Shown here piece by piece: positions 46,420 through 47,792 of a stretch of 64,000 bases of DNA. The stretch covers positions 279,372,001 to 279,436,000 of the forward strand of contig OZ024743.1 in assembly GCA_964016885.1 (NCBI GenBank). Reading direction: 5' to 3'. A program made the position numbers and the translations under genes. Below the pieces are notes generated by a model, which saw only the letters and a program-made list of their open reading frames with translations, searched no databases and had not been told where the DNA came from. Position 1 is the stretch's first letter. Each line of letters starts with the position of its first letter. The DNA comes from Eledone cirrhosa (lineage: Eukaryota).

Positions 46420-47791
46420 AGGGAGGGTCATATTGTTGTAATAATATTGCCAGAATTAATAATAGAACACACTCATTATTTGATTGGTTTTCGCTTCTGT
46501 ATCTTTTATATCAGTTAATTTAATTTATTCGGTTCTCAATGTTACCATTGACTGACCAACGGTCAAACATACAGATACGCTCTGGTATCTTTGGTTGTCG
46601 TGCCATGAGGTGGCTTTCCCTATCTTATGTCTAGTCCTATCTAAGCTATTCCATGATTCGCTCCTGTATAATGGGCAAATTCCTTTCATGTCCAGTTCTA
46701 TGAGGGTCTTATACTTCTCCGTGGCTCCTTCGTATACTCTGATTCTGTCTCTTTGGGTGTAGCCAGAGAACTGCATGCGGTTGATGAAGTGTTGGACGTG
46801 TCTTCCATTTCTGTTGGGTCGCACATGCGAGACACGTTCTTCATCATTCGTACCAAGTCTGCGATCAGAATATTAAACTTAGCACTACTGGACATTGCTG
46901 AGTTTTTGAGTATCAAGTATTTGGAGGCCATGGGTTTAACATAGTGTGAGTGGAGAATTTGGGCTCTCTCGTCTATAGTGTTAATCCAGAGTTCCGTGTC
47001 TAATACAGGTAGTCTATTGTTAGGGTATTTGGAAGAGTAGTCGATAGATACAGTTATACTCTGGTGTATGGAATAAGCTATCTGCTGGATGTTTTCCATT
47101 GTGCTACGTTCTAAATCAAACTTGTTAGTACTCTCTTGTGGGGATGTCCTTATTACTATATTGATGTCGTCTACGTAACGAGAGTACATGATGAGGTCTA
47201 TGGAGCTCTCATCAAGGATATCTTTGAGTCTCCTTTCCCAAAACACCATAAAAAGGTTGGCAACGTCACCAGCTATGCTGACGCCAATGGTTGCTCCCTC
47301 ATTTAGGGTGTAGATCTTCTCGTTGAATTTGAATATGTGGCCCTTTAGGGTAGTTTTAATATTAGCCCCTATTGCATGTGCGACCATTTTTCTTACCTGA
47401 TCATTGTTTTGGGGCGTCCGTATGGCTTTGGTCCACCCAATCCACCTTCCCATGGGATTCTTTTTTCCCATTAAGGTTATGGTGGGGGGGTCTACCTCTT
47501 ATGGGTCTACTGGGGCAGAAACGTCTAAGGTCATGGCTGTCTAGGTAGTCAGTGTCATAGGTAAATCTAAGCAGGAGGCCCAGTTCGTCTGTATCGACGT
47601 CGCAGAACTCCACCTCACTCTCACTGATCATCTCCACACATTTTTCCACAGCAAAATCAATGGTAATGGATGGGAGTAGTGACACCATGTCCATACTGCC
47701 TATTGTGCAGTTGGATAGGTTTTTGTTTTTGTTGCACTCACTGATTCTGCTGAGGAGGTCCTCTGTACTGTCAAAATCCTCGCAAAACTAA

Positions 47792-47792
<1 letters not shown>
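46420..47792 (-). mobile_element. Penelope-like element RT fragment bounded by family-specific termini
   Basis: DSTEDLL..IGSMDMVSLLPSI, HIFKFNEKIY..GATIGVSIAGDVANLFM, YSRYVDDI, LPVLDTELW, HYVKPMASKYL are PLE RT motifs. Ends match the 44821-45352 repeat family. Confidence 0.88.

Follow-up and report, generated by a model that had tools for sequence, protein, structure and literature searches.

The unit at 46421-47792 of the analysed DNA (the window, a single stretch of 64 kb) is in all likelihood the dead insertion product of an endonuclease-bearing Penelope-like element (PLE) of the type with a Zn-finger linker plus a GIY-YIG domain at the C-terminus, and the short repeats that we call family C are the pseudo-LTR (pLTR) of that element. 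As part of the same joint best explanation, the family C pLTR would span a hammerhead-like motif, the 5' UTR and the first codons of the open reading frame (ORF). The layout is ordinary for Penelope-like retrotransposons and is not new biology. The features of the unit and the family C copies are presented in Table 1.

Table 1. Features of the unit 46421-47792, its flanks and the family C copies of the window; signed positions are counted from the ATG of the ORF.
Feature	Position	Strand	Remarks
TA-rich repeat flank (target)	46386-46420	.	
3' pLTR arm, in the sense of the RT	46421-46575	-	spans about -144 to +11 (ORF ATG 46431); proximal end, without tail
PLE RT piece	46576-47772	-	1.2 kb; begins shortly ahead of motif 3(A) and takes in YVDD and the thumb
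Inverted 20-nt distal (tail) end	47773-47792	+	about +52 to +71 of the ORF; sits at the 5' truncation point of the RT
(TA)n flank (target)	47795-47829	.	
Very short family C end, proximal site	42543-42582	+	ATG 42557
C1a, inverted pLTR with tail	44821-45006	-	-115 to about +72; ATG 44891
C1b, short pLTR end with tail	45011-45088	+	ATG 45017; fold-back with C1a (75 nt, 96%)
Inverted 85-nt copy (94%) of 43161-43245	45116-45200	+	source lies 1.9 kb away, where a LINE-like piece abuts TA
C1c, pLTR arm without tail	45223-45351	+	-108 to +21; ATG 45331
C3, pLTR with tail, third subfamily	45613-45820	+	decayed hammerhead-like core 45618; ATG region deleted
C2, solo pLTR with tail, sister subfamily	49610-49866	-	hammerhead-like core 49861; ATG 49693

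Layout and ends of the unit

On the minus strand, the order of the unit is (TA)n, the inverted 20-nt family C end, the RT piece, the family C arm and the TA-rich repeat. The original prediction was that an RT fragment carries the same termini as the local fold-backs. Both of the termini that it quoted flank the RT piece, and their counts are far above chance; the homology on the left is longer than claimed and that on the right is short. A masked self-BLAST was used for the self-comparison, the window being microsatellite-rich, and by this measure the arm on the RT side (46421-46546, 126 nt) is 92% identical to 44881-45006, while the distal end (47773-47792) matches the distal terminus of family C at 19 of its 20 nt. 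Exact copies of ATATGACCCTCCC are found at 46421-46433 (-), 44881-44893 (-), 45015-45027 (+) and 45329-45341 (+), and those of CCTCGCAAAACTAAT at 47778-47792, 45073-45087 and 44821-44835 (-). With up to two mismatches, the window contains seven matches to the former (1.22 expected) and four to the latter (0.09 expected), numbers that were reached in none of 100 shuffles for either.

No TA tract is present at the two inner junctions of the RT piece, and no target-site duplication is readable in the TA-rich flank 46386-46420. Both outer ends lie at recurrent end positions of the family, and the parts of the unit are very unlikely to be chance neighbours. The 29 nt between the RT and the C1 homology (46547-46575) have no counterpart in the C1 arms and align weakly to C2 (6 of 300 shuffles were equally good); the nhmmer match of the RT-side arm reaches 46576, with a profile that contained that same arm.

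The RT piece and its relatives

The RT fragment is real, as predicted. In tblastn it gives a gapless match to residues 304-702 of P0001, an Octopus vulgaris gene model, in three frames (residues 304-399, 398-626 and 622-702; 56-73% identity, 66% overall; E 6e-156). Two frameshifts are found, near 47487 and 46810, and the matched parts contain no stops in 401 codons. By blastp the piece aligns to residues 466-866 of the full-length relative P0019 (1047 residues), compared with which it lacks about 465 residues at the N-terminus, RT motifs 1-2 among them, and about 181 at the C-terminus, where the Zn-finger linker and the GIY-YIG endonuclease lie. The Pfam RVT_1 match is weak (E 1.4e-4, under the curated cut-off), and a search of PDB sequences gave one weak RT match (E 4.5e-4) among three matches. 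With the longest RT frame as query, 31 proteins were found at E <= 1e-10 among 1715 candidates, P0001 being the best; the best named protein matches are Octopus gene models, which makes an octopus the probable host, and a profile search gave 1121 relatives at E <= 1e-30.

A clade of 33 rows (SH-aLRT 100), made up of the window RT and 32 database members, is obtained in a quick tree of 92 rows that carries no bootstrap and no named reference PLEs; within it, P0001 is the sister of the window RT. For this tree, the 104 of 198 matches covering at least 300 aa were kept and near-duplicate cluster members were dropped, leaving 91 database rows. A family profile from 111 proteins found the rest of the ORF (endonuclease and N-terminal body) nowhere else in the window. 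Also, no relative was present among the 57 pattern matches that a search for contaminant copies gave in bacterial and archaeal genomes. The stretch 42767-43183 (-) was considered as a PLE N-terminus and rejected: none of 162 candidates matched at E <= 1 in the protein search, and another of its frames is LINE 3'-like by eye.

Concerning the fold, the AlphaFold model of P0019, a protein 43% identical to the window piece, has a mean pLDDT of 74, and its four best matches in Foldseek, among at least 500, are telomerases (E 1.9e-5 to 1.3e-4, with low TM-scores). On this model, the clade of the window RT is predicted to have the telomerase-like RT fold expected for a PLE.

Family C as the start of the PLE ORF

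The fold-backs had been described as non-coding, which has to be revised: family C carries the ATG of an ORF, 24 codons and a coding substitution pattern. The ATG of C1a opens a frame across to the distal terminus, encoding 24 residues, and that of C2 opens the matching frame, encoding MALPKHNNIGFNTRFQIKNLANQIYKRN; this is the only one of the six frames that is open in both copies. Of 72 nt, 17 differ between C1a and C2, and 12 of these lie at third codon positions (p = 0.002). The start M-x-[FY][DNSE]TR is found in all four clade members with a complete N-terminus, against one of nine proteins outside the clade, and family C begins likewise. A profile built from those four database N-termini ranked C2 first and C1a second among 2699 window frames, both aligned from Met1. 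The scores are modest (11.2 and 10.2 bits; E 0.036 and 0.076), the best of 40 shuffled windows averaging 9.9 with a maximum of 19.1; because they are weak in absolute terms, the weight of this result rests on rank and position and not on size.

The peptide search of 536 candidates gave a single match, P0223 (A0A0L8I3J7, O. bimaculoides; E 1.1e-8, 83% to C1a), and no protein that joins the family C peptide to the RT was found among them. P0223 is a chimeric gene model of 136 aa, in which the family C peptide comes first and apparently unrelated sequence follows. Since it begins with this peptide, the family exists beyond this locus. The N-terminus of P0223 uses the start codon and first ~27 residues of the PLE; the model is probably a mis-predicted gene, or possibly an exonised PLE end. 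Judged from these comparisons, the family C termini appear to belong to a PLE of the RT's own clade, whose ORF start they hold, and the link that the original prediction drew between the fold-back architecture and a PLE RT is upheld.

Because the proximal terminus contains the ATG and the N-terminus matches the clade, the two ends of family C are taken as the pLTR and an optional tail. Counted from the ATG, the proximal group comprises +11 for the RT arm, +21 for 45351 and at most +26 for the copy with its ATG at 42557, and the distal group +71/72 (44821, 45088 and 47792), about +80 (C3) and +84 (C2), positions that are blurred by a few bases by TA microhomology. The two groups are ~50 nt apart. 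The unit 46421-47792 has a single tail end, and in 44821-45352 the outer ends carry it; the inverted arrangement of the pLTR, overlapping the ORF start, is present in family C. Reverse transcription of a PLE starts in vitro at two sites within the ORF start, the tail being the stretch between them (PMC11167929), and among the features typical of PLEs are copies that are inverted and 5'-truncated, a tail confined to one end and TA targets (PMC8557442). The end groups seen here correspond to the published pLTR and tail, and the fold-backs to standard inverted pLTRs.

An improbable alternative is that the RT piece is a passenger, the C1 machinery having jumped onto the RNA of a sister subfamily, whether C2-like, C3-like or another; RT and termini would then derive from distinct though related elements. 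PLE pLTRs are able to move unrelated sequence in trans (PMC3846280), and the local capture at 45116-45200, the cuts on both sides of the RT piece and the presence of at least three subfamilies would agree with such an origin. However, one template is the simplest explanation, the RT and the arm are in their natural order and orientation, and the peptide match ties family C to the clade of the RT, though without resolving subfamilies.

Hammerhead motifs and RNA structure

Hammerheads are located in the pLTRs of PLEs, including opposite-strand pairs (PMC4209133). The hammerhead-like core of C2 consists of CTGAAGA, a stem II of 6 bp and GAA, with an imperfect stem III. C2 and C3, which are collinear over ~250 nt (none of 300 shuffles was as good), both begin with a hammerhead-like core and stem II, decayed in C3. 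The C1 arms end before the hammerhead region and contain no hammerhead. None of the 19 Rfam matches in 44822-47795 is a hammerhead, and for C2 there is none among the 150 of 259 matches listed. An antisense hammerhead-like half motif in C1 was discarded, as the scan found no CUGA core and the motif arises from codons of the ORF start. The four end regions have no RNA structure in common (z 0.57, -0.41, -0.23, and -2.72 for one fold).

The junction between the RT and the pLTR, at -145, lies within ~6 nt of the predicted cut site of C2 as projected onto the arm, an estimate that depends on a weak anchoring alignment. Since 6 of 300 shuffles align as well, a template jump at the ribozyme-cut end is put forward only as a hypothesis.

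Clustering of family C and the question of a driver

All seven family C matches with E < 1e-4 in nhmmer are found in 42543-49864 and the other four of the 11 have E > 1, with a profile that was built from the clustered copies themselves. For five loci in 7331 bp, P is 0.0007 under a uniform null and 0.0016 when the null is weighted by the 85 merged TA tracts, with no correction for the number of repeat families (about ten in the window) or for the choice of the finding. The five loci and seven significant matches thus bear out the clustering that had been noted within 42.5-49.9 kb.

The RT fragment does not fit the part of driver that the original prediction gave it: it is 5'-truncated, has two frameshifts and lacks the endonuclease. 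Simple local re-insertion from this copy also fails, as the cluster mixes three subfamilies and the arm is too divergent, differing from C1a at 10 of 120 positions and from C1c at 11 of 119, whereas 4 of 119 differ between C1a and C1c. Of the 12 private changes in the three long arms, 8 are on the RT arm (p = 0.02). The RT has no stops against ~3.4 expected at that divergence (P 0.03), and this absence despite the divergence of the arm points to a different parent copy rather than to age. C2 and C3 diverged from C1 under protein-coding constraint, so they come from other masters and the cluster is not the result of simple local copying.

That the RT copy or its immediate on-site parent is a local master, re-inserting its own pieces nearby, is very unlikely. 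The density of loci, the neighbouring DNA captured in 44821-45352 and the nicking by a PLE of its own ORF-pLTR junction DNA in vitro (PMC11167929) speak for it; against it, the RT copy has neither endonuclease nor ORF start, most of the private changes are on its arm, and both the missing stops and the origin of C2 and C3 point to other parents. We consider the RT copy an unlikely donor of the fold-backs, and the cluster is better accounted for by repeated targeting of one neighbourhood, or by chance, than by a single local source being copied.

The fold-back 44821-45352 also contains captured pieces. The inverted 85-nt copy ends at the same TA boundary as its LINE-like source, which we take to be RTE-like from its translation by eye, and there is a further 22-nt match to 45541-45562. 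The stretch 45116-45200 is probably local DNA captured by template jumping, and the captured pieces together suggest jumps onto nearby DNA. The fold-back would be the product either of one event or of two insertions beside the AT-rich spacer 45089-45115. The same LINE-like end was also copied as 18 nt at 43288-43305, across a TA tract.

Linker, endonuclease region and motif A-B spacer

The CxxC linker pattern is found in 24 of the 32 database members of the clade, including P0001, and 22 of the 32 have, by motif, YxGE(T/S) downstream of it; P0011, one of the eight that do not match, ends in the thumb. The linker is deleted from the window copy and the endonuclease is absent from it. Pfam gave no GIY-YIG match for the 10 relatives scanned, and the P0019 model is of low confidence in the endonuclease region. 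In the full-length relatives the N-terminus is helical, DKSG is present and the endonuclease region is C-terminal.

It is highly unlikely that the family is a naturally endonuclease-less PLE, with an ORF that ends after the thumb and an RT-pLTR junction that is normal. The RT does join the pLTR directly in 46421-47792, and endonuclease loss within endonuclease-bearing (EN+) clades is known from MjPLE01 (PMC8557442), but P0001 runs on past the break point of the RT piece into the CxxC linker, the linker and YxGE(T/S) occur together in most of the clade, as given above, and the homology breaks mid-motif, after YQSV.

Both motif 3(A) and motif 4(B) were matched in 76 of the 223 fetched proteins, and the spacer between them has a median of 129 aa, with 74 of the 76 within 123-153; the window piece (47690-47300, -) matches the 128-residue spacer of P0001 without gaps. 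By an eye count from Fig. S1 of PMC8557442, Penelope and Neptune have spacers of ~57-58, a Naiad has ~84 and two telomerases have 115-149. By length, the spacer of the clade appears telomerase-sized, ~70 aa above the reference PLEs, and in P0019 the A-B insertion region is modelled as folded (pLDDT ~70-90). In the parts of PMC8557442 cited here, a motif A-B insertion is described for PLEs with an N-terminal endonuclease, some Coprina and telomerases, and not for canonical PLEs. Because of the long spacer, the clade is not assigned to Neptune or Nematis but called a Zn-finger-linker PLE with a C-terminal endonuclease. A literature search for a prior account of the long insertion, with Repbase and subscription papers outside its scope, gave only PMC8557442, and the lineage may already be catalogued somewhere.

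Other repeats in the window

The window contains several further fold-backs. That at 52440-53374 has 460-nt arms (99%), each with a hammerhead (Rfam HH9 at 53099-53170 (+) and 52644-52715 (-), under the gathering score), and is probably formed by inverted pLTRs of another, young PLE family. The near-perfect fold-back at 29918-31359 has 638-nt arms (99%) and a further 218-nt copy of the apex region; the scan found no hammerhead in it. The unit 43381-44711, with inverted and direct repeats in TA tracts (43381-43648 vs 44270-44551, 77%; 43718-43811 vs 44618-44711, 84%), is likely a further PLE family; a hammerhead-like stretch can be made out by eye around 44474-44520, and tblastn gives a weak match at 44233-44451 (E 0.13). 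A 160-nt element that carries a hammerhead core occurs twice (85% identity between the copies), at 46233-46394, which adjoins the RT unit across the TA repeat, and at 3911-4071; the core is intact at 4025 (-) and has one change at ~46279. Another hammerhead core is found at 63968 (-).

Two broken non-PLE elements are also present: a non-LTR retrotransposon at 13072-16963 (RVT_1 E 3.5e-22; zf-RVT weak), whose 3' part recurs at 35596-36882 (91% over 1308 nt), and a second LINE-type RT at 26451-28268 (RVT_1 E 3.5e-6), of which 58363-59320 is a partial, diverged copy (65-73%). Palindromic short repeats from TA tracts (1332-1511, 8293-8504, 31408-31534, 33554-33738, 45887-46060, 54167-54490 and 63516-63710) are spread over the whole window, unlike family C, and the same dispersion is seen for another short family, with 3402-3540 and about ten copies.

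In a window so dense in repeats sitting in TA tracts, separate insertions into one tract could mimic a unit, but the junction sequences of the RT piece, free of TA tracts, largely refute this for 46421-47792, as do termini that match the N-terminus of the RT's own clade and outer ends at recurrent positions, and we give such a coincidence almost no credence.

Comparison with known PLEs

The closest likeness is to the canonical EN+ PLEs Neptune and Nematis (PMC8557442). Shared with them are the order of RT, CX2-5CxxC linker and GIY-YIG-type domain in the relatives, the DK motif, the telomerase-like RT fold, the TA targets, inversion with 5' truncation of the copy, a tail restricted to one end and a hammerhead-like motif in the pLTR, which is seen here in the sister subfamilies. 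They differ in the spacer between motifs 3(A) and 4(B), with the median of 129 aa here against ~57-58 in the reference rows (PMC8557442). The Nematis rows in Fig. S2 of that paper come closer to the linker, C-x4-C-x2-C-x7-C, than the Neptune rows do (PMC8557442), and the tail of ~50 nt compares with 30-40 published.

Poseidon PAc of Anolis carolinensis also has two alternative ends inside the 5' ORF, which define the tail, and AT-rich targets (PMC11167929). Its starts lie 111-118 nt into the ORF, as against ~+11 to +26 and +71 to +84 here, and its hammerhead overlaps the start codon, whereas the hammerhead-like core lies ~170 nt upstream of the ATG in C2 (PMC11167929). PAc belongs to Penelope/Poseidon and has no Zn-finger linker, unlike the present clade (PMC11167929). 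In the Adineta vaga elements Pen2a, Pen2 and Pen3a, the pLTR holds the first 12 aa, or 22 with the tail, compared with ~4-8 and 24-28 here; the inverted pLTR, the internal deletions and the capture of unrelated DNA between pLTRs are common to both (PMC3846280). Those elements are of the Penelope/Poseidon group and have readable target-site duplications, whereas the TA flanks hide any that may be present here (PMC3846280).

Concerning cephalopod sequences, 31 recently active Penelope-like families are reported in O. vulgaris, with clades not named in the portion of the source used (PMC13282606). The two gene models CAI9736119.1 (P0001) and A0A0L8I3J7 (P0223) lie over broken copies, and neither joins an N-terminus to an RT. 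Naiad PLEs, including Naiad_Obim and Naiad_Ovul, likewise occur in Octopus, with (TA)n targets, inverted and tail structures and an insertion in the RT fingers (PMC8557442). They have an N-terminal endonuclease, DKA and no canonical hammerhead as described there, in contrast to the C-terminal endonuclease, DKSG and longer insertion found here (PMC8557442); the Naiad/Chlamys traits (N-terminal endonuclease, CxC and DKA) are not seen in the full-length relatives. The endonuclease-deficient Athena and Coprina, which are associated with telomeric repeats, are also no match, as the relatives carry an endonuclease region and the flanks here are TA repeats.

Proposed mechanism and implications

On the preferred reading of the unit as a dead PLE insertion, an intact element elsewhere would have supplied both the RNA and the RT-endonuclease protein. 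The protein would nick TA-rich DNA and prime inside the RNA at either ~+11 to +26 or ~+71 to +84; the end positions are those observed here, and the nicking of AT-rich DNA and internal initiation are taken from the literature (PMC11167929). From a proximal start, ~155 nt of pLTR would be copied, the endonuclease and 3' UTR skipped by a template jump or lost in a later deletion, and 1.2 kb of RT copied before an early stop, an order of events proposed for a structure that is itself observed. A very short copy primed at the distal site on the opposite strand would then close the other end and account for the inverted 20 nt. The fold-back 44821-45352 may have arisen by the same process, with almost no body and with neighbouring DNA captured.

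A bolder reading, which we regard as doubtful, is that of an undescribed PLE lineage, common among unnamed sequences, that combines a C-terminal endonuclease, a Nematis-like linker and a telomerase-sized insertion in the fingers. In Octopus its subfamilies would home repeatedly near older copies and jump template at the 5' end that their own hammerhead leaves. If true, it would give PLE ribozymes a testable role and tie PLE RTs to those of telomerases in a new way. What may interest specialists is that a PLE with a C-terminal endonuclease has a long motif A-B insertion. Two regions of reverse-transcription start could be mapped from sequence alone, which extends the in vitro result for one Poseidon to a Zn-finger-linker PLE, and small fold-back repeats that are easily mistaken for MITEs or unknown repeats can be assigned to a specific PLE lineage.
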